Source: Candidatus Magasanikbacteria bacterium RIFOXYD1_FULL_40_23
Lineage (GTDB): Bacteria > Patescibacteriota > Patescibacteriia > Magasanikbacterales > GWA2-37-8
Direction: 5' to 3'
NCBI GenBank assembly: GCA_001783215.1
Contig: MFRA01000005.1
Coordinates: 29,845-93,844 of the forward strand
DNA length: 64,000 nt
Part shown: piece after piece, positions 3,169 through 56,036 of the stretch
Layout of the letters: every line of letters begins with the position of its first letter
Numbering within the stretch: position 1 is the first letter of the stretch
Position numbers and translations under genes: made by a program
The notes under the pieces: generated by a model
Told to the model about the DNA's origin: nothing
Database searches by the model: none
Seen by the model: only the letters and a program-made list of their open reading frames with translations

Positions 3169-3196
3169 TTGACAAAACTATTAAATAATATAGTAT
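3169..3196 (+). promoter_or_regulatory. promoter-like TTGACA / 16-nt spacer / TAGTAT upstream of the GC-rich ORF at 3229
   Basis: TTGACA at 3169-3174, TAGTAT at 3191-3196. Confidence 0.35.
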
Positions 3197-3228
3197 TATT
3201 TTATCTAACCCAAGGTTAGGAGGATACT

Positions 3229-3627
3229 GTGCAAATTCTGCAACTCACCGAGTCCATGCTGACCCCGTTCGTTGGCGGACAACTTGAAATCATGGATCAT
3301 AAGAACTTTTGTGCATACTGCGGCGAAATAGAAAGTGTTAGGATTATAAGGGACTTTCTCGTCGTGAAATTCGCCTGGTGCGCAAGCAACGACGACAATG
3401 GCAACCAACAAGGGTTAGGCACAAACTGGACGTCAATCAATAAACTCACCTACAGCTGGATGCTTCCGGAAGGAATCATCTCTAAAGAGTACGGTGGAAG
3501 AATTACGGTAGGCTTCGGAATGCGTCTCGTCGAGCTTCTCATCTTCCTTCCAAAGGAGTGTGGGCCAAGCTACGAGGAATATAGACTTAATCGCAGCCAA
3601 GTCAAAGGGCTAGATGCCGTTCCATAG
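3229..3627 (+). CDS. hypothetical protein in a GC-rich islet; GTG start with a strong SD (AGGAGGA)
   Basis: AGGAGGATACT GTG. GC content is clearly higher than the flanks. A hairpin (GTGCGACC..GGTCGCAC) follows at 3646-3672. Confidence 0.45.
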   Translation: MQILQLTESMLTPFVGGQLEIMDHKNFCAYCGEIESVRIIRDFLVVKFAWCASNDDNGNQQGLGTNWTSINKLTYSWMLPEGIISKEYGGRITVGFGMRLVELLIFLPKECGPSYEEYRLNRSQVKGLDAVP

Positions 3628-3815
3628 GCTACAATTCAAGGCCAGTGCGACCAGTAGAGGGGGTCGCACACAACAACGACCATTCGTACCTCTACTTTAG
3701 ATCCTAAATAATTTGGGGCTTAAAGTAGTGCGAGTGGTTTTTTGTTTACAAAAGTCTCAATCCTATTTGACCTTCAAATTATTTTACAGTAAACTGCATG
3801 ATCAGGAGGAATACG

Positions 3816-4004
3816 ATGAAAATCTCTCTTCGAACAATATCAAAAGTATTAGCTTTTGGTGGAGCGTTTGCCGCCTCGGCACTTATTTGGCTCATAGCAG
3901 AGCATGCAAAATGGACACCCGTACCTACTGCAATAGTGGCAGTAATATCCGCTATCGTCTGTATCATGCTCCCACAAATATTGTTATCAACACGGAGAAA
4001 ATAG
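3816..4004 (+). CDS. small (62 aa) two-helix membrane peptide; SD-led, hypothetical, possibly toxin- or holin-like
   Basis: CAGGAGGAATACG ATG then MKISLRTISKVLAFGGAFAASALIWLIAEHAKWTPVPTAIVAVISAIVCIMLPQILLSTRRK. Convergent with the 4178-4444 gene. Confidence 0.4.
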   Translation: MKISLRTISKVLAFGGAFAASALIWLIAEHAKWTPVPTAIVAVISAIVCIMLPQILLSTRRK

Positions 4005-4117
4005 CTAGACTTTGCCCTGCGTTCAGTGTGTACCACCATGAAGCATGTTGAACAGATAAAATAATTCGTGGTTCATATAAAGCAGCTTTTACAAAGGCTG
4101 TTTTTAAATTTTTTGTA

Positions 4118-4166
4118 ATAAAAAAATACCGCCGAACCGGCTGCTTTATAGGCAGTGGTCGGCGGA
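4118..4166 (-). terminator. rho-independent terminator for the minus-strand gene ending at 4178
   Basis: Stem CCGCCGACCACTGCC/GGCAGCCGGTTCGGCGG followed by TATTTTTTTATT on the minus strand. Confidence 0.6.
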
Positions 4167-4177
4167 TAGAAACAGAG

Positions 4178-4444
4178 TCAGGAATTCTCCTTGGTTGCAT
4201 GGGCAGCATCATTTAGGCTCACAAGCCATTTGCGTAACTCGAGTTCATCGAACTTAAGAACATGGTTGGGGTCATCTGGGGGTATTACCCAAAAAATCTT
4301 GCCGAAGCGGCCAACCACACTAGATTCTCTAGCCCTTAGCAAAAGACTGCTAATACCATCGCGCGGGAAATCCGATTCTTCTAGAACGAGAACTTGAGGA
4401 GGGCAGGTCAGAGGCGCTGCGACAGGTCGGTCGCCCATGTACAT
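4178..4444 (-). CDS. hypothetical 88-aa protein; SD-led (AAGGAG), in a GC-rich islet
   Basis: AAGGAGTCGAGCC ATG TAC ATG GGC. The track ORF 4178-4492 is trimmed to the SD-supported start. A terminator lies downstream. Confidence 0.5.
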   Translation of the reverse strand: MYMGDRPVAAPLTCPPQVLVLEESDFPRDGISSLLLRARESSVVGRFGKIFWVIPPDDPNHVLKFDELELRKWLVSLNDAAHATKENS

Positions 4445-4684
4445 GGCTCGACTCCTTCTCTGTTGATGTCTGCATCGCTTCGAAAACTTCAAAGCAATGA
4501 AAAAACAGATAGATAATAGTATTATACTTTTTTACTATTATGTCAATACTTTTTTGAAAAAACTTGCAATAATTATTAAATTAAAAAATATAATTTTACC
4601 ATTAAGCTACATTGACAAAACCGCTTTATTATGATAGTGTTATTTTAATTCAAAAATTTTTCTCCTCCACATAAGGAGTCTGAA

Positions 4685-5041
4685 ATGGAATGGTCCCTGA
4701 AAATTCTAACGGGAATTGTCATTCTAATACTAGTAGCTATGCTTGGCTATGCCGGCATACAATGCTACGACTGTGTTGGAATAAAAACCTCGACCGGAGA
4801 AGCTACCGTAACAGGCTGTACATACAAAGCTCCATGGATACAGGTTACCATAGTGGGTAAAACACCTATGGTAATAAGTCACCCCGAAGAATGGTGGTTA
4901 TGGATGCGCATAGACGCCCAACAAGCCGCTCTTCACGTTACCGAAAGCACTTGCCACTCTCCCATTGGCACGGTATATAAAGTAAAATATGGTTATGGTC
5001 GTCGTAGTGGCGACTTAATTATCAAGGACTTTGCCCCCTAA
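4685..5041 (+). CDS. hypothetical small secreted or membrane-anchored protein
   Basis: N-terminal hydrophobic helix. AAGGAGTCTGAA ATG. Confidence 0.45.
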   Translation: MEWSLKILTGIVILILVAMLGYAGIQCYDCVGIKTSTGEATVTGCTYKAPWIQVTIVGKTPMVISHPEEWWLWMRIDAQQAALHVTESTCHSPIGTVYKVKYGYGRRSGDLIIKDFAP

Positions 5042-5121
5042 GCCCACCCCTAACAGATACACGTATAGTTCGCTGGCTACTAAAACAGCCGGCGTTTTTT
5101 ATAAATATAACCACTAAGACA

Positions 5122-6606: not shown

Positions 6607-6834
6607 TCAGTCGTCTTGGCTCAGTCGCATCTCTCGGTCCCCCAACCGATCGGTGTCGAACAAGAACCCATCCTCGAGCCACGGCGACAACGGCAACGCC
6701 CGAAGCTGAACATCCACCTTGGCCTCCAAGGCAGCTTCGGGGTCAACTTTCGCACAGTCATCACAGACGGCAACGTCCTCGTCGTCGGTCTCGATCTCCC
6801 TCTCACAAAGAACACATTCGACAGTCTTCGGCAT
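6607..6834 (-). CDS. small acidic zinc-ribbon protein (CxxC-x13-CxxC) in a GC-rich islet
   Basis: MPKTVECVLCEREIETDDEDVAVCDDCAK. GGGGGA precedes the ATG. Local GC is well above the flanks. Confidence 0.45.
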   Translation of the reverse strand: MPKTVECVLCEREIETDDEDVAVCDDCAKVDPEAALEAKVDVQLRALPLSPWLEDGFLFDTDRLGDREMRLSQDD

Positions 6835-7847: not shown

Positions 7848-8285
7848 ATGGATGAAAACATGTTAAACACAGCCCCATCTACAAGCAAAACAAAACTAAT
7901 CGTTGGCGTTCTAGTTTTATTAGTTGTTTTGGGTGGTGCTGCTTTTGTCTGGTACTCAAAAACTAAACCAGAAAATAAAATCCCCGTACCAACCACAAAT
8001 AATAGCGGTGCAACTGAGCCAAACATAACCCAACCAAGTTCCGAAGAAAATAATGGCGCCTCTCCTAACCCAGCCGTTCCCGCCACACCAGACACCTCTG
8101 ATACAGACCACTCCAATCCACCTAGCACTACTACGCCTCCATCAACTTCTACTTCTACAATCCCAAGACAAGATACAGGAGTAGATACTTTTGACCCAGG
8201 AAACTTACCACCTACTACCTCTACACCTCCAAGACCACCTGGCACACAAACAAATCCAGACAGCAGCACGGTACTTTCTCAATAA
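7848..8285 (+). CDS. Pro/Thr/Ser-rich low-complexity protein with an N-terminal TM anchor
   Basis: TM helix LIVGVLVLLVVLGGAAFVW followed by a PT-rich tail. The antisense ORF 7826-8269 is judged artefactual. Confidence 0.4.
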   Translation: MDENMLNTAPSTSKTKLIVGVLVLLVVLGGAAFVWYSKTKPENKIPVPTTNNSGATEPNITQPSSEENNGASPNPAVPATPDTSDTDHSNPPSTTTPPSTSTSTIPRQDTGVDTFDPGNLPPTTSTPPRPPGTQTNPDSSTVLSQ

Positions 8286-8742: not shown

Positions 8743-9138
8743 TTATGCTTTCAAAACCTTCGCCTTACTTAATAAAACTTTTACTTCTTGGCTAATGGCT
8801 GCATAATCTTTGTTCAAAACATCCTTTTTGGCTACCACAAGTATATAGTAGCCGTTTTTTATAACCCCATCTTTGAGTAGAAGCCTTATTACCTCTCTTA
8901 TCTGCCTTCGCACCCTATTTCGCTTTACTGCACTTTTATGCACCTTTAACCCTGTAGAAATGGCTAGCTTTAGCTGATTTTGGAAATTAATTGGATCTTC
9001 TTTTTCTGGGAAGAACTTTGTATTTTTGGCTAATTCTAGTACTTTTATATCCAAAAACTGGCCATTTGCCCAATAGCCATGCTTTAGTACCAAGTTAAAA
9101 TCTCTAAGTTTTCGTAAACGATTGTCTTGTTGGAGCAT
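8743..9138 (-). CDS. rnpA: ribonuclease P protein component
   Basis: 131 aa, basic. The motif VHKSAVKRNRVRRQIRE is typical of RnpA. Synteny is rpmH-rnpA-yidD. Confidence 0.85.
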   Translation of the reverse strand: MLQQDNRLRKLRDFNLVLKHGYWANGQFLDIKVLELAKNTKFFPEKEDPINFQNQLKLAISTGLKVHKSAVKRNRVRRQIREVIRLLLKDGVIKNGYYILVVAKKDVLNKDYAAISQEVKVLLSKAKVLKA

Positions 9139-9274
9139 ATTATAAAATAGTATAACAAATTACCGTTGATTTGTCTTTGACAACACATCGCAGTCACGAC
9201 TCGCGTCGGGACGAGATCTGAATGCCCGAGTCATCCACAGATGGCGAGAGGCTGTTTGGCAAAGATAAATTAAT

Positions 9275-9325
9275 GGTAATTAAACATAAAACCCGCCTTT
9301 GAAGGGGGTTTTATGTTTAATTACC
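9275..9325 (-). terminator. 20-bp perfect inverted repeat hairpin between rpmH and rnpA (terminator or attenuator)
   Basis: GGTAATTAAACATAAAACCC ...GCCTTTGAAGGG... GGGTTTTATGTTTAATTACC. The minus-strand reading is followed by a U-rich stretch. Confidence 0.55.
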
Positions 9326-9499
9326 AGGTTTTTCTTGTTCTCTTGCCTTTGCGTTCGTTGGAAACTGTTAGTTTCTTTCTGCCTTTTGCACGTCTGCGGC
9401 TAAGAACTGCGCGTCCTCCCTTGGTTTTCATACGAGCACGGAAACCGTGGGATTTTGCTCTCTTGCGTTTTTTAGGTTGATAAGTTCGCTTTGTTGCCA
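9323..9499 (-). CDS. rpmH: 50S ribosomal protein L34 (below the 60-aa cutoff, so absent from the ORF track)
   Basis: Manual translation gives [59 protein letters not shown], with the L34 motif HGFRARM..GGR.VL..RR.KGR..L. Confidence 0.85.
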
Positions 9500-9697
9500 T
9501 ATATAAGACAGCTAATAATTACAAAACCAATTGTACATAATTACCCGTGTTTTGTCAAGGTAAGTGAGTTTTATCCCCAAAAACAATCTATCCACACCTT
9601 GTCCCCAGTCTTTCCCCCACCTGTTTTTGGCTAACTATTGGACACCTAGCTTTATTATGTTAAGATTAAAAAGTTAAATAATAAAGGTTCTAAAAAT

Positions 9698-11098
9698 ATG
9701 TCCAACCACGAAATATGGCAAGCTGTTTTGGCAGAATTGGAACTTACCATCTCTAAACCAAACTTTGTTACCTGGTTTAAGAATACAGATATCCTATCCT
9801 ACCAAGACAATTGCGCTGTATTGTGCGTACCCAATGACTTCAACCGTGCCTGGCTAGAGAAAAAATACCACCACATGATTGTAACTTCTCTAGAGAGAGT
9901 AACCGAAAAACCAATCAAACGACTAGAATACAAGATATATAATATAAAAAACATTGTTCCAGAAAGCGCTGTTGTAGAAACCAAAACAGAAAATGTTTCC
10001 CAAGAAACACCTGTGCTTTCTCCTGTTTTTACTTCTTCCGAAGTGTCTGCCCCTCCAAGAGTGGGTGAGTTTGGCTTAAATCCAAAATATGTTTTTGAAA
10101 CTTTCGTAGTTGGCGGTGGATCCGAACTTGCTTATGCAGCCGCTCAAGCCGTAGTAAACAAACCAGGCGAAGCCTACAACCCACTATTTATCTACGGTGG
10201 CGTAGGTTTAGGCAAAACCCACTTGGTACAAGCTATCGGCAACCATCTACTCAAAGCCAGACCAAATATAAATATCATGTATGCCAGCGCCGAAAAGTTC
10301 TCTAACGACTATATCTCTTCTGTTCGAGACGGCAATGCCAAAAACTTTCAAAACAGATACCGCAATATAGACGTACTTCTTATAGACGATATTCAATTTA
10401 TCTCTGGCAAAGACAAAACCCAAGAATCTTTCTTCCACACCTTCAACGAATTACACCAACAAAACAAACAAGTAGTAATGACTTCTGACCGACCACCAAA
10501 AGCTATTCCTGCCCTAGAAGACCGCCTAAAATCCCGTTTTGAATGGGGTATGATTGTAGATGTGGCTCCACCAGAACTAGAAACTAGAATAGCTATTCTG
10601 CAGAAAAAAAGCGTAGAAAAGAACTTTCATCTTAACCAAGACATTTTGCAATTGGTGGCCACCACTATCCACCGCAACATCCGCGAACTAGAGGGCGCAC
10701 TAAACAAAATTATCGCGGTTCACCAGCTAAAAAACATGGAACCTACTATGGAATCGGTAAAGGCACTACTAGCCAACACCGAAATGCGTTCGGCATACAA
10801 ATCTATTACCCCTCAACAGATTATAGACGCGGCCAGTGAATTCTTTACAATCAATACTTCCGATCTACTTGGCCAAAGCCGAGAAAAGAAATTCTCTCAC
10901 CCTCGCCAAATTATCATGCACCTAATGCGCAAAGAACTTAACATGTCTTATCCGGCTATTGGCAACGAGCTTGGCGGAAGAGATCATACAACCGCTATGC
11001 ATGCCGACAACAAAATAAGCACAGAGATAGAACAAGACCTAAAACTAAAACAAGAAGTAGAGCTAATAAAACAAAAGCTTTATATAAACATTACCTAG
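9698..11098 (+). CDS. dnaA: chromosomal replication initiator DnaA
   Basis: 466 aa. AAA+ Walker A GGVGLGKTHL, DnaA domain IV, and the MSNHEIWQAVLAELELTIS N-terminus. Confidence 0.93.
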   Translation: MSNHEIWQAVLAELELTISKPNFVTWFKNTDILSYQDNCAVLCVPNDFNRAWLEKKYHHMIVTSLERVTEKPIKRLEYKIYNIKNIVPESAVVETKTENVSQETPVLSPVFTSSEVSAPPRVGEFGLNPKYVFETFVVGGGSELAYAAAQAVVNKPGEAYNPLFIYGGVGLGKTHLVQAIGNHLLKARPNINIMYASAEKFSNDYISSVRDGNAKNFQNRYRNIDVLLIDDIQFISGKDKTQESFFHTFNELHQQNKQVVMTSDRPPKAIPALEDRLKSRFEWGMIVDVAPPELETRIAILQKKSVEKNFHLNQDILQLVATTIHRNIRELEGALNKIIAVHQLKNMEPTMESVKALLANTEMRSAYKSITPQQIIDAASEFFTINTSDLLGQSREKKFSHPRQIIMHLMRKELNMSYPAIGNELGGRDHTTAMHADNKISTEIEQDLKLKQEVELIKQKLYINIT

Positions 11099-11218
11099 TT
11101 GTCATTCCGACCGAGCCTTTAGGCGAGTGGAGGAATCCCTTAAACTTAGTATTTGCAACTACCAGGTATAAGGGATCCCTCGACGGAGTTTATGCCCCGA
11201 GGGGTGCTCAGGATGACA
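11099..11218. repeat. inverted pair of GTCATYC...GGATC repeat units (family R) immediately after the dnaA stop
   Basis: GTCATTCCGACCGAGCCTTTAGGCGAGTGGAGGAATCCCT ... AGGGATCCCTCGACGGAGTTTATGCCCCGAGGGGTGCTCAGGATGACA. Confidence 0.6.
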
Positions 11219-11225
11219 AATCCAC

Positions 11226-11517
11226 AGTTAATAATCAGTGGATAACCGATGTATAACTACCAAATATTTGCACCACTTATACACACTACTTACAACTTAT
11301 TCACAACCAATTACAAAATAATATTTTATCCCCACACCTTATTAGTCAAACACCAACAACTTACCCACAACACAAAAATCTAAAAACCCGTTTGGATAAA
11401 CAAGAATTCTGACTTATACACTTTATCCACTGCTATATAGTAACGATTGGAATTTATATATAAATATATAACGATATAATAATAGACAACTAAAAGTTTA
11501 CCCACTAGTTAAATTTT
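11226..11517. other. candidate oriC: DnaA-box cluster plus AT-rich unwinding region between dnaA and dnaN
   Basis: TTATCCCCA, GTTTATCCA (rc), TTATACACA x2, TTATCCACT and TTACCCACA x2, followed by ATTTATATATAAATATATAACGATATAATAATA. Confidence 0.6.
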
Positions 11518-12639
11518 ATGAAATTTTTCTGCACAAAGGAGAACCTATCAAAATCGTTGGCTCTAGTAATTGGAGTCGCTGGCAAAAACATTAACCTGCC
11601 AATCTTGGGTAATGTTTTAATTAAGGCTAGCGAACAAAAGGTAGAGTTTATGGCCACCAACCTAGAATTGGCTATAACTTCCAACCTTCGTGCCAAAGTA
11701 GAGGTACCAGGTACATTTACCGTGCCTGCCCGAACTCTAAACGATTTTGTAAACCTATTGTCGGAAGAAAAAGTAGAGTTGTCTTTAAAAGACAACGAGT
11801 TAGAAGTTGTATGTGGAAGGTCTTCTACACGCATAAAAGGCGCCCCAGCCGACGAGTTTCCTGTTGTGCCGGTAGTAGGTGAAGGTAAAGGTTATGTAGT
11901 AGATATAGAAGCATTCAAAAGTGGTTTGGGGCAAGTGTTCCAGGCTGCATCCAAAAACGAAATAAGGCCGGAATTAGCGGGTGTGCTGTTTAATTTCAAC
12001 GAAGATCAAGGAAGCCTAACAATGGCCGCCACAGACAGCTATAGACTGGCAGAGAAGAAGATAAAACTAATCCAAGGCGAAGAAAAATCCAGAGTGATTA
12101 TGCCAGCTCGCACAGCTCAGGAGATAAGTCATATTTTGATTTTGTCCAAAGGGTTAGAGAATGAAAGGAATGTACGACTGTTAGTTACAGAGAATCAAGT
12201 AATCTTGCGTTGTAACGACGTAGAGTTGGTATCTCGTCTGGTAGATGGCCAGTATCCAGATTACACTCAAATTATTCCAAAAGAGTTCAAAACTTCAGCC
12301 GAATTTTCTACCAATCAAATTACCAAAGAAATAAAAGCAGCTAGTTTGTTTACCACTATCGGTATAAACGCTGTAAGTTTTGATTTTGATCCAACCAGTG
12401 GTGTAGTTACGGTTTCTTCTGTGTCTACCCAAACCGGCGAACACAAATCCGAACTACAAGCAGAAATAAAAGGAGAGAAAAATAATACCCTTCTTAACCA
12501 CCGTTATGTGCTAGACGGCTTGGCTAATATAGATACAGAAAATGCAGTGCTCAAAGTAATTAATGCCGATAGCCCATGTGTACTTGCGCCAAAAGGCGAT
12601 CAAAGCTTTGTTTATATTGTGATGCCGATACGACAGTAA
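11518..12639 (+). CDS. dnaN: DNA polymerase III beta sliding clamp
   Basis: 373 aa, three-domain clamp. N-terminus MKFFCTKENLSKSLALVIGVAGKNINLPILGNVLI. Confidence 0.9.
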   Translation: MKFFCTKENLSKSLALVIGVAGKNINLPILGNVLIKASEQKVEFMATNLELAITSNLRAKVEVPGTFTVPARTLNDFVNLLSEEKVELSLKDNELEVVCGRSSTRIKGAPADEFPVVPVVGEGKGYVVDIEAFKSGLGQVFQAASKNEIRPELAGVLFNFNEDQGSLTMAATDSYRLAEKKIKLIQGEEKSRVIMPARTAQEISHILILSKGLENERNVRLLVTENQVILRCNDVELVSRLVDGQYPDYTQIIPKEFKTSAEFSTNQITKEIKAASLFTTIGINAVSFDFDPTSGVVTVSSVSTQTGEHKSELQAEIKGEKNNTLLNHRYVLDGLANIDTENAVLKVINADSPCVLAPKGDQSFVYIVMPIRQ

Positions 12640-16539: not shown

Positions 16540-16653
16540 GATTCACACAGCATTATTCACTTGCATCATGTTGTGTGCATTATGAATTCATGTTTGTTAG
16601 GGATATTTTATACCAATGAGCGAAAATTTACCAGTCTGTTAGGTTGGGTTGGA

Positions 16654-16686
16654 AGGGTTGACAAAAAGGGCGATTTGTGATATATT
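16654..16686 (+). promoter_or_regulatory. sigma70-like promoter for the 3D-domain gene (GGGTTGACA / 17 nt / TATATT)
   Basis: TTGACA at 16658-16663, TATATT at 16681-16686. Confidence 0.5.
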
Positions 16687-16742
16687 TAGACGTTAATTCA
16701 TGAGGGTATCCTGTAAGGGATACTTTTAAATTAATTAAGAAT

Positions 16743-17294
16743 ATGAGCTTAAATAAGCCAAATTTGACCACAAAAGCCTTGAAAGTTGCAGTAAACTTGC
16801 CAATATTTATGGCTTTACTTAGCAATTTAGCCTTGCCATCTATCGTAAAAGCTGATATTGAGCAAGAAATGGCTAACTCTACACAAAAAATGGCCTTTAC
16901 CGGGATAAAAGCCCCAGAAGTGGCTAAGATGCCAAAAAAATTGGCTTCTGCTGCTGGTGGGTTAGCTCCGGATAAGGTATTGGATGCTGTAATTACAGCC
17001 TATACCAGTACCCCTGGCCAAACCGATGATACTCCGTTTATCGCTGCTAGCGGTAAAAGAGTGCACGACGGCATGATTGCGGCCAACGGTTTACCATTTG
17101 GTACTCAAATCGTAATTCCTGAGCTTTATGGTGATAAGGTCTTCGTAGTAGAAGATCGTATGAATCGCCGTTATGGCTTAGGCCGTATGGATATCTGGTT
17201 AGACACTACTCGCGCTGAAGCTATGAAATTTGGTGTAAAGCGTGTAGAAGTATTAATCTTCTATCCAAAAAAGGCTGTTGCCAAAGTTAAGTAA
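16743..17294 (+). CDS. 3D-domain (MltA/YuiC-like) cell-wall protein
   Basis: AYTSTPGQTDDTPFIAASGKRVHDGMIAANGLPFGTQIVIPELYGDKVFVVEDR carries the three conserved Asp of the 3D domain. N-terminal signal/TM. Confidence 0.7.
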   Translation: MSLNKPNLTTKALKVAVNLPIFMALLSNLALPSIVKADIEQEMANSTQKMAFTGIKAPEVAKMPKKLASAAGGLAPDKVLDAVITAYTSTPGQTDDTPFIAASGKRVHDGMIAANGLPFGTQIVIPELYGDKVFVVEDRMNRRYGLGRMDIWLDTTRAEAMKFGVKRVEVLIFYPKKAVAKVK

Positions 17295-21469: not shown

Positions 21470-21943
21470 TTAATCAAGTAGTGGTTTCTGGCGCATTACT
21501 AGCCACCCATACTCCTCGCCAAGCTTTGCATGTTCGTAGAATTGACGCATTGGTCTGGGCGCTAATCCCTGGTCAAATCCGAAGATATATGGTGTGTTTG
21601 TATGTTCTCGCTTAACCAAAACGATTATCGGGTGGTCAAGGTAGATTAGCCCCAAAGACAGAGCTATGAGATGGCACTGCTCAAAGGCAAATGCTCTGGC
21701 TAGATGTTCTTCATCTGGAGTCAGAAGCCTATAGCCAAGGCTTTGCAGCTTAAACGACGCTTCGCTTGGGGTGGTCTCGCTCTGGAAATGGTGTTCGTAT
21801 AGCTCCCATTCGGTGGCATGCAAAGGCACGTCTGGTCCAGGAATATTGAAAATAAGCCTTTGCGCCATAGGCTGGCGTGCACATCCTAGAGCCAGAAAGG
21901 CGAAAACGATGGTAGAAAGAGCAAGATTGATCCGGTGGCGCAT
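21470..21943 (-). CDS. hypothetical lipoprotein in a GC-rich islet; SD-led (GGAGGT)
   Basis: Lipobox FLALGCA. GGAGGTCCAAC ATG. GC content is elevated compared with the surrounding host DNA. Confidence 0.5.
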   Translation of the reverse strand: MRHRINLALSTIVFAFLALGCARQPMAQRLIFNIPGPDVPLHATEWELYEHHFQSETTPSEASFKLQSLGYRLLTPDEEHLARAFAFEQCHLIALSLGLIYLDHPIIVLVKREHTNTPYIFGFDQGLAPRPMRQFYEHAKLGEEYGWLVMRQKPLLD

Positions 21944-22389
21944 GTTGGACCTCCGTGTGTAGGGATTAAACAGCCTTTTTCAATTTCAAGCAAGTATATT
22001 GGCAATAGGGGGCTTCGCCGCATATATTCTCATTCACTCGGAAATAGTTTGGCAAACCAACTGTTTCACTCATTCACTTCGAATATTAAAAAAGGCGATC
22101 ACCCTCTAAATCAATTTGCATTGGTACAGAGGCGGATCGCCTTTACGTTGATACTACTAAGGGGAGGTACTTTCCCCTTTACGGGGAACATGTACTCTAC
22201 CTACCTTGGGTAGTATTAAAATTGACCTCAACCGCTTGTGGGTAGAGCCCTGGTGTCTTGACCCGAAGGTCTCGACTAATTAGGGTTGCCCGGGAAGAAG
22301 TTGGGCGTGCCATTGTTTCTCTGTTTTCTACAGATAACAGTTGCATACCCGCTTTCTCTTTTACAGTTTGAGAGTCATTATCTGCTTAG

Positions 22390-22640
22390 GAGCAGACTAG
22401 ATAAATTGTAGAATGAACTACATAAGTAAGTATACACTATTTTTAGTGTTTTGTCAACACGTTTGTATACACTAGTATACACAAATGCTTTTTTGGCTAA
22501 TCATAAACAAAATTATTATTTCTTATCCACATTGTAAGTGAGTTATACCCAGGCTTATCCACAGTTGTATAGACTTGTGTATACAAAAAAAGATTAGTTA
22601 TCCACTTTTCAGGTGTTTATAATTGACAAAATACAATTTT
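22390..22640. promoter_or_regulatory. dense secondary cluster of DnaA-box-like motifs (at least 7), 11 kb from dnaA
   Basis: TTATCCACA x2 (perfect), TTATCCACT, TTATACCCA, and TGTATACAC/TTGTATACA x3-4. Confidence 0.5.
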
Positions 22641-22682: not shown

Positions 22683-23216
22683 ATGGAAACTTGGAGTGTT
22701 TCCAGGGTGTTTGCTTCTACGCGAGTAGTTGGTTTGTTTCTTCCCGGACAAATATTTTCCGTAAAGGATAAGTTTGTTGTTGGGTGCGGTCCCAGTACAC
22801 CCATCAGGTTTAATTGGGTAGTTGACCGGTTCCTTTGGTACTTTGGTATGGTTCCTTATTTAGTAGAGCATGGAGTTGTGCTACTGGAATGCCATGTATT
22901 GGCGAAGGAGTTCACTAGCACCAAAGACATGTTCAAGGCTGTTGGTGGCCCAGGGGATCAAGATGCCTTTGTTACCGTTCCAGAGGTATATGCCCTGCTG
23001 TTGGGCCATGCTGAGGATAGAGAGAACTGCGCACTATCTAGTAATCATGGGAATATCTTTTTTCTTCAGGGAACGCACGAATCGTCTTGGATTTTGAATC
23101 TAACCTGGTGTGAGAACTCTGGCTGGATTGTTACCTTTTGTGAGAGCCTTATTCCTCACAATTGGCTAAAAAATCAGAGAGTCTTCTCTCGTCACAAGTT
23201 CAAGCCGGCAGTATGA
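22683..23216 (+). CDS. hypothetical protein in a GC-rich islet; SD-led (AGAGGGGGA)
   Basis: Start trimmed to the ATG that follows the strong SD (METWSVSRVF...). The track ORF begins at 22623. Confidence 0.45.
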   Translation: METWSVSRVFASTRVVGLFLPGQIFSVKDKFVVGCGPSTPIRFNWVVDRFLWYFGMVPYLVEHGVVLLECHVLAKEFTSTKDMFKAVGGPGDQDAFVTVPEVYALLLGHAEDRENCALSSNHGNIFFLQGTHESSWILNLTWCENSGWIVTFCESLIPHNWLKNQRVFSRHKFKPAV

Positions 23217-23298: not shown

Positions 23299-23465
23299 AT
23301 ATAGGTAAACCATATTTACTCGCACGCTCGGAAAAGTACATAAATGTACTTTTCGCTCACTTTGCTTGTAAATGAATGAGGAAATAGTTGGTTTACCAAA
23401 CTATTTCCGAGTGAATGAAATTATATGTAAAACTATATAATTGTAATATAGGTAAACCATATTTC
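23299..23465 (+). promoter_or_regulatory. copy G of the ~85-nt leader element family; not fused to a real gene and flanked by 19-bp perfect direct repeats
   Basis: ATATAGGTAAACCATATTT is repeated at 23299-23317 and 23447-23465. Between them are Box1 ACTCGCACGCTCGG, an 11-bp perfect IR GAAAAGTACAT/ATGTACTTTTC, Box2-like GCTCACTTTGC, then ATG opening a 22-codon ORF that contains a 10-bp IR GGAAATAGTT/AACTATTTCC. Confidence 0.5.
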
Positions 23466-35066: not shown

Positions 35067-35558
35067 TCACTTATAAATAGATTGAAAGAAATCAAAGAGC
35101 TCTTTTTGTTTATGTAGTGGAAGCGCGGAGAGTGGCTTGTTGCTCTTTGGTGAATTTCCTCCCCATGGTTTGCCAGAAATCATAAGCGATGTGCTTGGGC
35201 CGTTTAGCGGACGCACATAGTGCGCTCCATTTGGCTCCGTCATTTCATATTCCGACCCAGCCACGAGAATTATGCGCGCCGCTATAGGCATATCAGAGGT
35301 CTCCGAGCCGTATCCGATACCCATCTCGTAGCTGCCATCCAAAACCTTCATTGCCGAAGGCCAGGGGTGGGTGTGAAACAGAGCTTCTTCTGGTTCGCAT
35401 GGGTGAATGCGGTGGAGGTAAATACGATTCCCTTGCCACTCGCACCACAGGCGCTCCACGAAGGGGTGGTGGTAATCAATAAATACATTTTTCCACCTCG
35501 CTTCATCGCGAAGCAGGGCAGGAAGAACAAGTTCGGCTTGGTGTAGAAGGTTGAGCAT
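35067..35558 (-). CDS. hypothetical protein (His-rich HTHPW motif); moderately GC-rich
   Basis: Start trimmed to MLNLLHQ. Its AAGGAAAAAA SD overlaps the upstream stop. Confidence 0.35.
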   Translation of the reverse strand: MLNLLHQAELVLPALLRDEARWKNVFIDYHHPFVERLWCEWQGNRIYLHRIHPCEPEEALFHTHPWPSAMKVLDGSYEMGIGYGSETSDMPIAARIILVAGSEYEMTEPNGAHYVRPLNGPSTSLMISGKPWGGNSPKSNKPLSALPLHKQKELFDFFQSIYK

Positions 35559-35559
35559 G

Positions 35560-35811
35560 TTATTTTTTCCTTTGACCAATAATAGACAAGATAATTGATG
35601 CAGCGAAGTTATCCATCTCGCCAAAATCTTGGCCTGTTTCTGACTCTCTATCTAAGTCACATTCCACATTTTTAGAACCACAGAATTTGCAAGTAGTTTC
35701 TTCTTTGCGCATTTCTTGAAGCTGTTCGGGAGTCTTGCCCAAACCAGTCTTGTAGCCAACCCAATTACGAGCCCGGCCACAGCTATTACATTTCATCTTG
35801 TAGGCTTCCAT
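35560..35811 (-). CDS. small zinc-ribbon protein (CxxC...CxxC)
   Basis: MKCNSCGRARNW ... CKFCGSKNVEC. Confidence 0.4.
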   Translation of the reverse strand: MEAYKMKCNSCGRARNWVGYKTGLGKTPEQLQEMRKEETTCKFCGSKNVECDLDRESETGQDFGEMDNFAASIILSIIGQRKK

Positions 35812-37163: not shown

Positions 37164-37889
37164 ATGAATGAAATAAAATTACGAATAGGCGAAGCTGCAA
37201 AGATACTGGGAGTATCGGAGCAAACCATGCGAAACTGGGAAAAATCTGGCAAACTTCGTGCCGAGCGAAGTAGAGGGAATCAGCGCTTTTATTTATTAAA
37301 AGACCTCAAAATTTTTTCCCTTGATTTAAAAGTATTGGCTTTAGCATGGGCTACAAGTGCTTTACCACCAGAACTTCCTAGCGAATATTACTGTGAGCGA
37401 CCAGATCGTTTTACAAGTCGAGTGGCCAGGATGGGTGCCGAACTTCAGAAGGCTGGAGGAGTGTCAGAAGATTTAGCATCTCTTCTAACCCTTGTTGCTG
37501 GGGAAATTGGTGATAATTCTTTTGCTCACAATGTTGGTAATTGGCCGGATCTTGCGGGTGTGTTTTATGGATACAACATAGATAAGCGAATTATAGTAAT
37601 TGCAGACCGAGGACGTGGTGTGAAAACAACACTTCAGCAAGTCAGACCCAATCTTGCAACGGATATAGAAGCTCTTAATGTAGCTTTTACAGAAATTGTT
37701 TCTGGAAGAAATCCGGAAAAGCGTGGCAACGGACTCAAAGTGGTTCGTAAAGTGACAGAGTCAAAAGAAATCGGTCTTTTATTCCGTTCGGGTATCGGGC
37801 TCGTTACCATACCCATTCATCCCGGACCGATGCGAATAACGATGACTGATGGAAATGTTCGCGGAACATATGCTGTTATACAATTTTAA
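37164..37889 (+). CDS. fusion of a MerR/Xis-type HTH with a GHKL (HATPase_c, RsbW-like anti-sigma kinase) domain
   Basis: HTH: MNEIKLRIGEAAKILGVSEQTMRNWEKSGKL. ATPase N-box-like GEIGDNSFAHN and G-box-like IADRGRGV. Confidence 0.5.
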   Translation: MNEIKLRIGEAAKILGVSEQTMRNWEKSGKLRAERSRGNQRFYLLKDLKIFSLDLKVLALAWATSALPPELPSEYYCERPDRFTSRVARMGAELQKAGGVSEDLASLLTLVAGEIGDNSFAHNVGNWPDLAGVFYGYNIDKRIIVIADRGRGVKTTLQQVRPNLATDIEALNVAFTEIVSGRNPEKRGNGLKVVRKVTESKEIGLLFRSGIGLVTIPIHPGPMRITMTDGNVRGTYAVIQF

Positions 37890-39067: not shown

Positions 39068-39877
39068 CTACTCATTCACCAGCCGCTTTGAGCGCTCTGC
39101 CAGCGCCAGAAGTTCGGCATTGGTATATTTCTTCCGCACGATTGGTTGCCAGTCGTGTCCGGCAAACGTCGGGTCGTACGGATTTACCGACCTAACCCAG
39201 CCAAGGTGTGGCAAAACTTCCATCGGGTCGTTTGGGTTTACACGCGTGTAGTGGATTACTTGGCAATTGCCGATTTTGAACCATTTCTGGTTTTCGCTTT
39301 CCACCGTATGGTAGGTATCTGCGGTCATGTGCTCCAAGATAATGCGAAAGGCCTGCATCAGGCCGCCGTGCGAGACAATAATCACCTGCTTGTCTGCCAT
39401 CTCGCGATGTAGTGTGCTGAGAATATTGGTGCGAAGTCGATCGCAAATCTCTGGAATGGATTCTCCATCGGGCCAAGGCGCGTAGAGTAGATGCTGTTGG
39501 CGCAGCCGCATATACCTTTGGAACTGTTCTTTCCGCGTACTGTTGGCAAGCATATCCACTTGGCCATGATCGCGTTCGCGAAGCTGGAAGTCCATATTCC
39601 AATCTGCATCTGGCAGATCCAGCAGTGCAGCCGTTTCTACGGCTCGTGTATATTCCGACACGTAGTAGCCGTCAAATCGGTCTAGTCCTTGGCTTTTTAG
39701 CCAGTCGCCAGCCATTTTGGCCTGCACTTTGCCTTTGTCAGTGAGTCGCAGTTTAGTGCTGTGCCTGTTTAGAAATTCTGGCGTGAAGTCGGAGTTGTCT
39801 CCTTTGCGCGAACGCCTGTTGGCAATGTTACCTTCGGATTCGCCGTGGCGAACAATTACAAGATTGAGGGGGAGCAT
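39068..39877 (-). CDS. histidine phosphatase (phosphoglycerate-mutase-like) family protein; GC-rich, likely horizontally acquired
   Basis: N-terminal RHG motif VIVRHGESEGN. Local GC is clearly higher than the host. Confidence 0.6.
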   Translation of the reverse strand: MLPLNLVIVRHGESEGNIANRRSRKGDNSDFTPEFLNRHSTKLRLTDKGKVQAKMAGDWLKSQGLDRFDGYYVSEYTRAVETAALLDLPDADWNMDFQLRERDHGQVDMLANSTRKEQFQRYMRLRQQHLLYAPWPDGESIPEICDRLRTNILSTLHREMADKQVIIVSHGGLMQAFRIILEHMTADTYHTVESENQKWFKIGNCQVIHYTRVNPNDPMEVLPHLGWVRSVNPYDPTFAGHDWQPIVRKKYTNAELLALAERSKRLVNE

Positions 39878-54452: not shown

Positions 54453-54914
54453 CTATGTCTTATATGAAAAAGAAGGGCTGTTTTCAAAAAGTGCCAGCCA
54501 CTTGGTTATGTTATTTAGTTTACATGAAGGCGGCCATTGTTTTATGCGATGTTTGGCCAAAAAAGATAAGTACAAATTTAGTTTTAAGAGCATCTGTCTG
54601 CCAAATAACCAAAAAAGAATTGAGAACGTAATAGTTAGTAACATTACTAGTAAAATACTTTTTGAGAAAAGAATATTAGAAAAAGTTTGGTAAGCAGAAA
54701 TATGGTGTATCGTTACCGCTAAAGTGTTTGTAGGGCAAAACTCATTACCTGGTAGAGAAAAGGGGCATTTACTAGTCATGTATTGGTTAGTGTCCATGCT
54801 CATATCCATCATAAAGATAAGCCCAAAAATAACTACCCCAATAAAAATTACAGAGGTAAAAATGGATGTAAGTTTAATTTTTAGTTTTTTATTTATCATA
54901 TCTAAATTAAGCAT
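54453..54914 (-). CDS. hypothetical polytopic membrane protein at the head of the copper island
   Basis: 153 aa, TM-rich. A CsoR-type operator overlaps its annotated start; the real start may be the internal Met at 54899. Confidence 0.4.
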   Translation of the reverse strand: MLNLDMINKKLKIKLTSIFTSVIFIGVVIFGLIFMMDMSMDTNQYMTSKCPFSLPGNEFCPTNTLAVTIHHISAYQTFSNILFSKSILLVMLLTITFSILFWLFGRQMLLKLNLYLSFLAKHRIKQWPPSCKLNNITKWLALFENSPSFSYKT

Positions 54915-54934: not shown

Positions 54935-55105
54935 GTCAAGTGTGGATAAATATATAAATAAAAAACAACTCCGTTAGGAATTGTTTTTTAAATTTGTAAT
55001 TTCATGGAGGAGGCATTAGTGGAGCCAATTGTTTAGCTTAACTAATGCGCGCTCCTCCATGAATGTATCTGTTAGAGCGCGCCGACAACTGTGTCGGGTG
55101 GCGTT

Positions 55106-55864
55106 CTAGGCCACGGCGGCCATGATGCTGGACTGCTCGAACTTGGGGTTCGTCAGCAGGGCGAAGATCCGGGCGAAGCGCTCGTGGCCGAGCTCGCTGG
55201 ACTGCCACCCCTTCTGGTCCAGCTCGGCCTGCGTGTACTTCTGGGCGCAGGAGCCGTTGCGGGCGATGGTGACGTTGCCGTCCTTGTCGATGTGGTAGAC
55301 GGTGGCGCTCTTCTTCTTGGCACCATCGAGGAACACCAGGGCGATCAGCATGCCGCCGCTGACCTTCCAGATGACGGGGGTCATCGCCATGTTGGTGGCG
55401 TTGAACTCGTCGGTGGCGGGGTCGTTCTCCATGACCTTCCCCTGGAGGGCGGGCAAGCTGCCCGGGTACTGGAGGGAGACCGTGGTCTCGCCGGCGGTGA
55501 TCTTGATGGTCTCCATCGGCTGCGCGTTGCGCTTCTTCTGGGCCTTGTCCAGCCGGTGACCCACCAGGAGCCAGTGCCGCATGTTGCGCAGCTCCTGCCG
55601 CTCCCAGTAGGGCGAGCATGCCTTCTGCCGGATGCCGAAGTTCAGCTCGATCTTCGCCGCGACCTCGGGGCACATCGGGCAGACGATCCCGCTCCGCTCG
55701 TTGTGCAGGAACGGGCGCTTGCCACCCATGCAGAGGAAGTAGCTGTAGTTCTCGAGCGCGTACAAGGCGCCGGTCTCGGTGATGGCCTTCGTCGTGAAGG
55801 TCTGGCGCATGGTGCGCGCGTGCGAGGGGGTGAGCTTGTACGAGTCCTGGCTCATGGTGATCAT
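55106..55864 (-). CDS. hypothetical Cys-containing protein encoded in a very GC-rich block; strong SD (AAGGAGA)
   Basis: AAGGAGACTGCT ATG ATC ACC ATG. Balanced amino-acid composition, whereas the overlapping ORFs 55038-56048(-) and 55091-55960(+) are Arg/Ala/Gly/Pro artefacts. Cys-containing motifs FLCMGG, CPMCPE and KACSP. Confidence 0.5.
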   Translation of the reverse strand: MITMSQDSYKLTPSHARTMRQTFTTKAITETGALYALENYSYFLCMGGKRPFLHNERSGIVCPMCPEVAAKIELNFGIRQKACSPYWERQELRNMRHWLLVGHRLDKAQKKRNAQPMETIKITAGETTVSLQYPGSLPALQGKVMENDPATDEFNATNMAMTPVIWKVSGGMLIALVFLDGAKKKSATVYHIDKDGNVTIARNGSCAQKYTQAELDQKGWQSSELGHERFARIFALLTNPKFEQSSIMAAVA

Positions 55865-56036
55865 AGCAGTCTCCTTGGCGGTCGAAACGTCGTGTTGGTA
55901 ACCCTGAAACAGGGTCACCTATGGAAAAAATGGGATTTCTCCCTGTTTTGGAGGCCCTAATTAAGGCATCTAAAGCAGGGAAAAACCGTGTTTTAGTGAT
56001 AAATTGTAAAGAAAATGTTGCATATAGCAACCAAAC

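Follow-up and report, generated by a model that had tools for sequence, protein, structure and literature searches.

Phage morons, in the concept of Hendrix and Juhala, are autonomous single-gene transcription units inserted between two genes that stand side by side in related phages. Integron cassettes are single-gene mobile units that pile up at hot spots and are mostly promoterless, and genomic islands are usually AT-richer than the host that carries them. The DNA analyzed here is a 64,000-nucleotide (nt) stretch from a groundwater organism, Candidatus Magasanikbacteria bacterium RIFOXYD1_FULL_40_23 (GCA_001783215.1, contig MFRA01000005.1, positions 29,845 to 93,844), and the whole of this stretch is referred to below as the window. 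It contains small genes led by strong Shine-Dalgarno (SD) sites in a genome whose resident genes are essentially without them. Our data indicate that these genes are probably horizontally acquired single-gene expression cassettes, placed in the intergenic spacers of an SD-independent genome and translated via their SD sites. The region that was singled out by a first-pass annotation of the window (3200-4500) contains three independent cassettes, A1, A2 and A3, with a fourth, A4, adjoining it, and these are four of at least ten cassettes in the window.

Similar to morons, the cassettes consist of one gene between genes that are neighbors in relatives, with a promoter and terminator of its own and a deviant composition. 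In contrast to morons, the backbone is a chromosome of the candidate phyla radiation (CPR) near oriC, phage genes and viral relatives are absent, and the SD sites stand in an SD-less host. The cassettes also resemble genomic islets and horizontally transferred ORFans in their atypical codon usage and G+C content at third codon positions (GC3), in their absence from the syntenic site (islets A, B and C; island E is common to one relative), and in their patchy homologs in unrelated contexts (the A1 family and C1). However, they measure 0.3-0.8 kb, hold one gene, lack mobility genes and tRNA-linked integration, are GC-richer than the host, and in at least one case have not ameliorated in GC3. Like integron cassettes, they are single-gene units that gather at hot spots. 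In contrast to these, no array is present, no attC-like imperfect palindrome is repeated at the cassette ends, no integrase was found in the part of the window genes that was examined, and the cassettes have their own promoters.

In terms of translation, the closest described systems are bacteria whose genes lack SD sites. For Flavobacterium, it is established that AU-rich, unstructured regions govern initiation in such bacteria (PMC6847099). In Bacteroidia, SD sites are ignored except in special cases, the anti-SD is sequestered by bS21, bS18 and bS6 (PMC9976891), and ribosomes that lack bS21 translate rpsU, one of the rare genes with an SD (PMC7797042, PMC9976891, PMC13000453). The window is similar in that its native genes are SD-less with AU-rich, unstructured starts and a minority of genes has strong SD sites, but it belongs to another phylum, and in place of a conserved ribosomal-protein gene with autoregulation its SD-led genes are accessory ORFans that vary; rpsU was not encountered among the window genes scanned. 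The Parcubacteria that reportedly lack an anti-SD (PMC9297842) are likewise organisms of the CPR/Parcubacteria group with essentially SD-less native genes. Unlike in that case, the conserved and well-spaced accessory SD sites found here suggest that the anti-SD is still in use. In the literature, SD-led accessory genes in SD-less CPR genomes were not found described.

The 20 nt upstream of 70 curated gene starts in the window were scored as a duplex with the canonical 16S tail CACCUCCUUU, and a duplex of -7 kcal/mol or lower was taken as a strong SD. Eleven of the 70 genes had one: the nine reported by the first-pass annotation, whose SD-plus-start sites are all present with their positions and strands as reported, a tenth SD-plus-start site at 4685 (AAGGAGTCTGAAATG), and 54453-54914(-), which adjoins a 65%-GC island. 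The first ten constitute the islet set (A1 to A4, B1, C1, C2, D1, D2 and E1). Outside this SD-picked set, a strong SD was present in one of 60 genes against a background of 6.0% of all window ATGs, which agrees with the earlier statement that the core genes lack SD sites; the resident genes include hppA, tig, nfo, yidD, rnpA, rpmH, dnaA, dnaN, a class-A penicillin-binding protein (PBP), guaB, copA and a resistance-nodulation-division (RND) pump. In eight islet genes, 5-7 nt separate the end of the SD core from the start, which is the canonical spacing. Past the window end, the next 10 kb contain four more SD-led small genes with no family assignment, two of which are uncalled (L075:14913-15317 and 16631-17029, GC3 0.62 and 0.87), and the genes called VKOR, DsbA-like, CorA, MgtC and RecA there have no SD.

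Two variables that had no part in picking the SD genes separate them from the rest. The median GC3 was 0.449 for SD genes vs. 0.328 for non-SD genes (Mann-Whitney p=2e-4), and the fit of synonymous codons to the long genes, expressed as ln relative synonymous codon usage, was -0.07 vs. +0.12 (p=7e-6). SD energy correlated with GC3 (Spearman -0.41, p=5e-4), and within the window the SD thus tracks GC3 and a poor codon fit. A codon-usage gene call trained on long open reading frames (ORFs) overlooked nine of the ten islet genes; gene callers trained on a host model miss or misplace SD-led cassette genes. The first-pass description of the islets as GC-enriched holds in part only: 55040-55920 (GC 0.61-0.65) is the one striking island, and A2 (0.42), C2 (0.41) and C1 (0.44) are barely above the genome mean of 0.40 (the window as a whole is 40.1% GC).

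The start regions in the window fall into two classes. In native genes (n=49), the 20 nt upstream of the start are 81% A+T, and the median minimum free energy of positions -25 to +25 is -2.8 kcal/mol, which is essentially unfolded; islet genes differ, with 50% A+T and a median of -8.1 kcal/mol (p=2e-5 and 9e-7 for the two comparisons). A TTGACA-type promoter of its own lies 20-73 nt upstream of every islet gene, and several have hairpin terminators, with promoter and terminator sites in register with the ORFs. Because of these promoters and frequent terminators, the islet genes look like self-contained expression units. The leaders of tig, nfo and rpmH, estimated from the positions of the -10 boxes, are about 15-25 nt long. 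At 37164, 40039 and 9138(-) (rnpA), -10 boxes (TATAAT, TATACT) end 8-10 nt before the start, and this distance suggests leaderless or near-leaderless mRNAs for some native genes. Hairpins of the form CTCCT...AGGAG that might sequester the SD upstream of A4 and of a minigene in the related locus L014 were also considered; they were no better than shuffled sequences (z 0 to +0.9).

The four cassettes of islet A differ in orientation and each carries its own signals. A1 (3229..3627, +) encodes a 132-amino-acid (aa) member of a conserved family, has a GC3 of 0.55 and is absent from related species. The promoter-like site TTGACA-16-TAGTAT (3169..3196, +; 10/12 match) ends its -10 box 32 nt before the start codon, and the SD, AGGAGG (3218..3223, +; -10.2 kcal/mol), lies 5 nt before the GTG start. 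A2 (3816..4004, +) encodes a 62-aa peptide with two hydrophobic, predicted transmembrane (TM) helices and has AGGAGG at 3804-3809 (-10.3 kcal/mol); a promoter-like TTGACC-17-TAAACT site lies at 3767..3795 (+). This peptide clusters alone, as one sequence. For the same stretch NCBI calls an 86-aa minus-strand ORF, 3779-4039(-), and other sources call the 62-aa ORF with its SD and promoter. A3 (4178..4444, -) is an 88-aa ORFan that converges on A2, with AAGGAG at 4452-4457 (-8.8 kcal/mol) and a promoter-like TTGACA-17-AATACT site at 4546-4518; its database search returned A3 itself as the sole match, and its single-sequence AlphaFold2 model has a predicted local distance difference test (pLDDT) score of 60.6 and is unusable. 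An imperfect GC-rich hairpin read from the sequence between the two convergent genes (4129..4165) may act as a bidirectional terminator. A4 (4685..5041, +) encodes 118 aa with an N-terminal TM helix and has AAGGAG at 4673-4678, a promoter-like TTGACA site at about 4612-4640 and a terminator at 5071-5094.

B1 (6607..6834, -; GC 0.58, GC3 0.70) encodes a 75-aa acidic CxxC...CxxC protein behind GGGGGA at 6846-6841 (-8.4 kcal/mol), with a perfect consensus promoter, TTGACA-18-TATAAT, at 6907-6878 and a strong terminator at 6579-6547. The tiny proteins A2, A3 and B1 are as the first-pass annotation had described them. C1 (12746..13369, +; SD GGAGGT) encodes a 207-aa isochorismatase-like hydrolase (Pfam PF00857, 2e-11), and C2 (13373..13636, +; SD GGGAGGT, -13.3 kcal/mol), an 87-aa ORFan with a basic tail, starts 4 nt after the C1 stop. 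D1 (21470..21943, -; SD GGAGGT, -10.7 kcal/mol; GC3 0.48) is a predicted lipoprotein of 157 aa with a lipobox-like LALGC sequence. D2 (22683..23216, +) is a 177-aa ORFan with GGGGGA 3 nt before its ATG (-11.0 kcal/mol). E1 (55106..55864, -; SD AAGGAG) is a 252-aa ORFan with a GC of 0.65 and a GC3 of 0.98 inside a GC-rich block at about 55040-55920.

Window proteins were compared by tblastn with 14 syntenic loci from related Magasanikbacteria, 12 related species being represented in the comparison, and the comparison of presence and absence covers islets A, B and C. The nearest genomes, found through the trigger-factor gene, are metagenome-assembled genomes of Magasanikbacteria whose Tig is 75-88% identical. 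The backbone of LysM protein, hppA, tig, nfo, yidD, rnpA, dnaA, dnaN and PBP is kept throughout the 14 loci, and A1, A2, A3, A4, B1, C1 and C2 have no tblastn match in any of them. The hppA-tig spacer is 2029 bp here, 122-173 bp in five relatives and 310-2177 bp, with inserts, in five others; the tig-nfo spacer is 500 bp here and 17-85 bp in five relatives; and the dnaN-pbp spacer is 1050 bp here and 4-60 bp in five relatives. Islets A, B and C are insertions. They were recovered in independent assemblies from ENA, NCBI (GCA_001783315.1, MFRD01000031.1), JGI and Logan, whose contigs, from one uncultured species, are identical to the window.

The long spacers of relatives hold different small ORFs with strong SD sites (five in L014, two in L016, two in L006 and one in L015), and these spacers therefore appear to be hot spots that different species have filled independently of each other. 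L014 and L015 have one SD-led gene of 78 aa in common, which is weakly matched in L016. The larger low-GC variable genes in the hot-spot spacers of relatives have no strong SD. The long ORFs of relatives are SD-poor as well, at 3/81 and 2/48 with a naive pipeline that, when calibrated on E. coli, found an SD for 17% of genes compared with 37% at annotated starts. The absence of the islets from the related loci, the short spacers there and the patchy families of A1 and C1 support the earlier proposal of repeated acquisition.

A full HMMER scan yielded about 20 representative relatives of A1, 116-147 aa in length (the family is about 120 aa), which share the motif FIGGQxEIQN...FAWxAK...FFP...LDPSxVxGL and whose N-termini agree with the GTG start. 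A1 had no match in Pfam, PHROGs or PADLOC. The AlphaFold model (pLDDT 86.5) has an N-terminal helix followed by a beta-rich domain, its structural matches are weak and Sm/LSm-like (E 0.06-0.3), and no significant match was found among the viral models of BFVD. The dN/dS of 0.16-0.25 among three close members indicates purifying selection, and A1 is thus predicted to be a small beta-rich protein under such selection.

A scan of metagenome contigs for the A1 family gave 40 loci, of which 37 could be analyzed for SD and 31 for GC3. The SD is retained in this family: 31 of the 37 genes reached -7 kcal/mol or lower and 20 of the 37 reached -9, while the neighboring long ORFs had an SD in 10 of 154 cases, which equals background. 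Two members that were checked individually showed the same pattern of an SD among SD-less neighbors. The GC of the A1-family gene exceeded that of the rest of the contig in 33 of 35 loci (mean +12.7 points), and its GC3 averaged 0.67 vs. 0.45 for neighbors, with the family gene ahead in 30 of 31 loci (Wilcoxon p=3e-9). Homology is limited to the cassette, as the nucleotide similarity between loci ends about 100-250 nt from the gene, no neighboring gene family recurs in three or more of the loci, so that no conserved partner gene was seen, and none of the other islet proteins of the window occurs in these loci. A unit of 737 nt is common to L040 and L045 (92% identity), whose flanks are otherwise largely unrelated. 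In order, the unit comprises TTGACT-17-TAAACT, a leader that contains a small hairpin, AAAGGAGAC, the ORF itself, a hairpin terminator and about 190 nt more. Thus the cassette reaches about 250 nt past the ORF (L040:5390-5640 and L045:3973-4223), and the 190 nt after the terminator are GC-rich and conserved (GGTCGCCGCC...GGGGGGTGTGGGGGG...); they may represent a recombination site or a small RNA. In 10 of the 31 loci the gene exceeds its neighbors in GC3 by no more than 0.07 and is close to compositional equilibrium, and a strong SD is kept in seven of the ten.

For C1, 44 homologs at 48-77% identity were found in addition to its own cluster, some of them named Kaiserbacteria, Woesearchaeota and Nanoarchaeota. 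Two bacterial homologs on CPR contigs (L062 and L063) have a near-identical ATGGAGGTT upstream and SD-less neighbors, and an archaeal homolog has no SD upstream. The families of A1 and C1 are thus scattered over further contigs of the CPR/DPANN type and bring their SD along. That the A1 copies at equilibrium and the CPR homologs of C1 keep their SD sites suggests that the SD is functional in SD-poor hosts.

E1 has a single homolog among 5.8 billion proteins, at 63% identity, on a contig from Hainich groundwater (L074:414-1118), and it is present in those same-species contigs that are long enough to show the site (L066 and L067). The upstream flank of the homolog is AT-rich (36% GC) and 81% identical over 418 nt, which include the TTGACA promoter and a leader of about 180 nt; the arrangement and the SD region are the same, and the GC3 is 0.96, compared with 0.98 for E1 and an average of about 0.33 for the genes of its genome. 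Since the two genes share their AT-rich flanks, island E predates the split of the two lineages. The flank has diverged by about 0.2 per site and the gene has a dS of 0.24, and yet third positions that are A or T number 4 and 10 of 230 in the two genes. In the pair, C<->G changes account for 11 of 20 synonymous third-position differences, as compared with 9 of the 74 flank substitutions (Fisher p=1.5e-4). The dN/dS of 0.82 indicates weak protein constraint. Alternative coding frames in the island were considered and none is under strong purifying selection; the E1 frame itself is stop-free, has the GC3 of 0.98 and contains conserved blocks. For this one pair, with 20 sites, the pattern suggests that selection or GC-biased conversion holds the GC3 of E1 high.

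The combination of an own promoter and a strong SD in an SD-less genome marks the SD-led genes as imported, stand-alone cassettes. A cassette would consist of a sigma-70-type promoter and a leader of 20-70 nt in which a canonical SD stands 5-7 nt ahead of the start codon, followed by a small ORF and, in most cases, a hairpin terminator, and it would enter an intergenic spacer of the SD-independent CPR genome by horizontal transfer. Resident genes would initiate without an SD from AU-rich, unstructured leaders that are short or absent. The cassettes would recruit the ribosome through SD-anti-SD pairing, on which they would depend because the AU-rich, unstructured mode is not available to start regions that are GC-richer and folded. 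The conservation and the spacing of the SD sites point to a host ribosome with an accessible anti-SD that uses them. Entry may occur by recombination into spacers with no dedicated integrase; natural transformation combined with illegitimate recombination would be a guess at the route.

Several observations weigh against this reading. About half of the Parcubacteria reportedly lack the CCTCCT motif in their 16S rRNA (Tsurumaki et al. 2022, PMC9297842), and if it were also missing in the lineage of the window, the cassette SD sites could not work as proposed. The loss is mainly found in the subgroup that lacks uL1, and the status of Magasanikbacteria is not stated there (PMC9297842); no 16S rRNA was found in the window, in the 10 kb past its end or, by regular expression, in 62 loci. 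The elevation of GC is weak in A2, C1, C2 and several SD-led minigenes of relatives. No integrase, transposase, att-like repeat or flanking direct repeat was found at islets A, B, C and E, and D2 alone lies inside an inverted repeat, of 47 nt. Island E is shared with a related lineage with its GC3 undecayed, which a simple recent import does not explain. SD-rich neighbor genes were seen in none of the 37 A1-family loci and no GC-matched donor context was found, and the smaller GC3 excess of the weak-SD copies is not significant (rho -0.29, p=0.11; Mann-Whitney U p=0.15). The SD-using donors that were proposed at first pass are thus unproven, also in view of the composition-matched A1 copies that keep their SD and of the GC3 of E1, which seems to be maintained.

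These last points bear on an alternative that overlaps with the import of cassettes, namely a gene-intrinsic regime in which the SD and the GC-rich coding sequence are actively selected in accessory genes, so that the signature would tell of function instead of a recent foreign origin. The selected property may be initiation by a ribosome sub-population or state with a free anti-SD, as for rpsU of Bacteroidia, or one possibility is that GC-rich mRNA is favored for its stability. The near-saturated GC3 of both members of the E1 pair despite the age of the island, the C<->G excess, the SD kept by seven of the ten A1 copies at equilibrium and the missing SD-rich donors all fit such a regime, as do the reportedly enlarged bS21 and bS6 of CPR bacteria (PMC9297842), given the sequestering role of these proteins with bS18 in Bacteroidia (PMC9976891). 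We nevertheless regard it as rather unlikely, as the cassette genes are species-specific insertions and form no conserved regulon, the E1 case is one pair with 20 sites and a gene of weak protein constraint, and GC-biased gene conversion at recombination hot spots could lift GC3 with no selection on expression. Because SD-rich donors are absent, equilibrium copies keep their SD and the E1 pair keeps its GC3, SD and GC may perhaps be maintained and not only be the fingerprint of a donor. A more far-reaching version, to which we give a similarly low weight, is that a pool of integrase-less cassettes roams the CPR with its SD sites and high GC3 actively maintained, and that it uses a separate translation channel, possibly on state-specific ribosomes.

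That the islets are remnants of prophages or plasmids, or minigenes for toxin/antitoxin (TA), defense or anti-defense functions, as the first-pass annotation had proposed, now appears very improbable. Small ORFans in variable hot spots are typical mobile cargo, C1 and C2 are 4 nt apart, A2 and A3 converge, and PHROGs gave weak matches for B1 and C2 (E 0.007-0.016), but those are to families of unknown function. PADLOC found no defense family for any of the ten islet proteins, and Pfam found no TA, defense, integrase, transposase or phage family among them. The A1 family, with its 40 metagenome loci, no recurring partner gene and no significant viral fold match, has no relatives in 2.9 million viral contigs (IMG/VR). 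E1, C1, D2 and A4 have no IMG/VR relatives either, in single-protein scans that reach close relatives only, and the viral match of D1 was rejected as spurious, as it amounts to one 8-mer in common with a viral-contig protein of 671 aa. Searches of plasmid and phage records with the islet proteins by tblastn gave no matches. The layout of TA pairs was not seen, as A1, A2 and A3 have separate promoters and orientations and the first gene of the C1-C2 pair is an isochorismatase-like enzyme. A still smaller probability attaches to the view that the islets are non-genes, chance SD-like strings in GC-richer DNA or assembly chimeras, which is largely refuted. It would account for the lack of homologs of A2, A3, A4, B1, C2, D1 and D2 beyond near-identical copies, the ORFs were chosen at first pass partly by their SD, and gene callers disagree on A2. 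However, the background of 6% of ATGs compares with 10 of 10 islet genes at a tight 5-7-nt spacing, A1 and C1 belong to real families and E1 has one homolog, promoters and terminators are in register with the ORFs, and independent assemblies contain the same sequence.

Other features of the window bear on its setting. Cumulative GC skew reaches its minimum between dnaA and dnaN, at about 11-11.5 kb (region 9100-11600), so the window likely spans the replication origin, and islets A, B and C are each no more than about 8 kb away from it. In a search for RNA families, two tRNA-Ser genes passed the gathering threshold, and no other candidate in the window was credible at E<0.5. The gene at 7848-8285(+) encodes a Pro/Thr/Ser-rich membrane-anchored protein of about 135-175 aa, located near nfo/yidD in most relatives, with equivalents in L007, L008, L009, L010, L012, L013, L014 and L018. 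It diverges very fast (tblastn matched it in L008 only, at 36% identity) and always has a native-type, AU-rich, SD-less start; rapid divergence alone therefore brings no SD. Three genes carry a partial SD, AAGGAAAAA, 8-10 nt before the ATG: 35067-35558(-), a 163-aa gene (GC about 0.49; AAAGGAAAAAATAAC-ATG, -5.8 kcal/mol) that was missed by the codon-usage call; 35560-35811(-); and 39068-39877(-), a 269-aa histidine-phosphatase gene (GC 0.52, GC3 0.58; AAGGAAAAACAAA-ATG). Two of the three are GC-elevated (0.49 and 0.52), and the three seem to form a class that is intermediate between native genes and islet genes.

A conserved element of 75-90 nt was found upstream of 41573(+), 42272(+), 33364(-), 44660(-), 48969(-) and 54259(-), where it ends 4 nt before the ATG. 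It consists of ATAGGGGCTAAAGCC-CATATATACTCATTCGCTCG, a palindrome of about 27 nt, and a second box in the layout TCACTCAYTTC-N4-ATG, which occupies the usual SD position. The sequence of the palindrome varies between copies and its self-complementarity is kept. The window genes behind the element encode TipAS-domain, LUD, YgjP-like, cupredoxin-like and CusB-like/RND pump proteins. The element is also present at L006:13219, before dnaN, and at L007:6986, before tig, and its presence at orthologous genes thus varies, because these relatives carry it before dnaN or tig instead. No Rfam family matched the element, which may represent either a regulatory RNA or a mobile module of promoter and leader. 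Degenerate copies lie at 22021-22090 and 23310-23430. D2 is bracketed by the 47-nt inverted repeat (22021-22067 and 23381-23427, 91% complementary and 1.3 kb apart), each arm of which belongs to a copy of the element, and the repeat could be a guaB upstream region that was duplicated during insertion. The 580-bp non-coding stretch upstream of D2 also contains, at 22450-22590, a cluster of TGTATACA-type palindromes (e.g., TTTGTATACACTAGTATACACAAA) that looks like repeated operator sites.

If the import of SD-led cassettes is correct, the SD would be a sequence-only marker of mobile accessory genes in SD-less CPR lineages, and here it is a steadier guide than GC. An SD could still be read by ribosomes whose own genes are never translated with one, which would bear on the retention or loss of the anti-SD in CPR and in Bacteroidia-like lineages. 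Should the apparent upkeep of a GC3 close to 1.0 at a genome GC of 40% be confirmed, it would be an unusual case of selection or biased conversion on synonymous sites. Gene flow in these ultra-small bacteria would then proceed through self-sufficient single-gene units that have no recognizable mobility genes.

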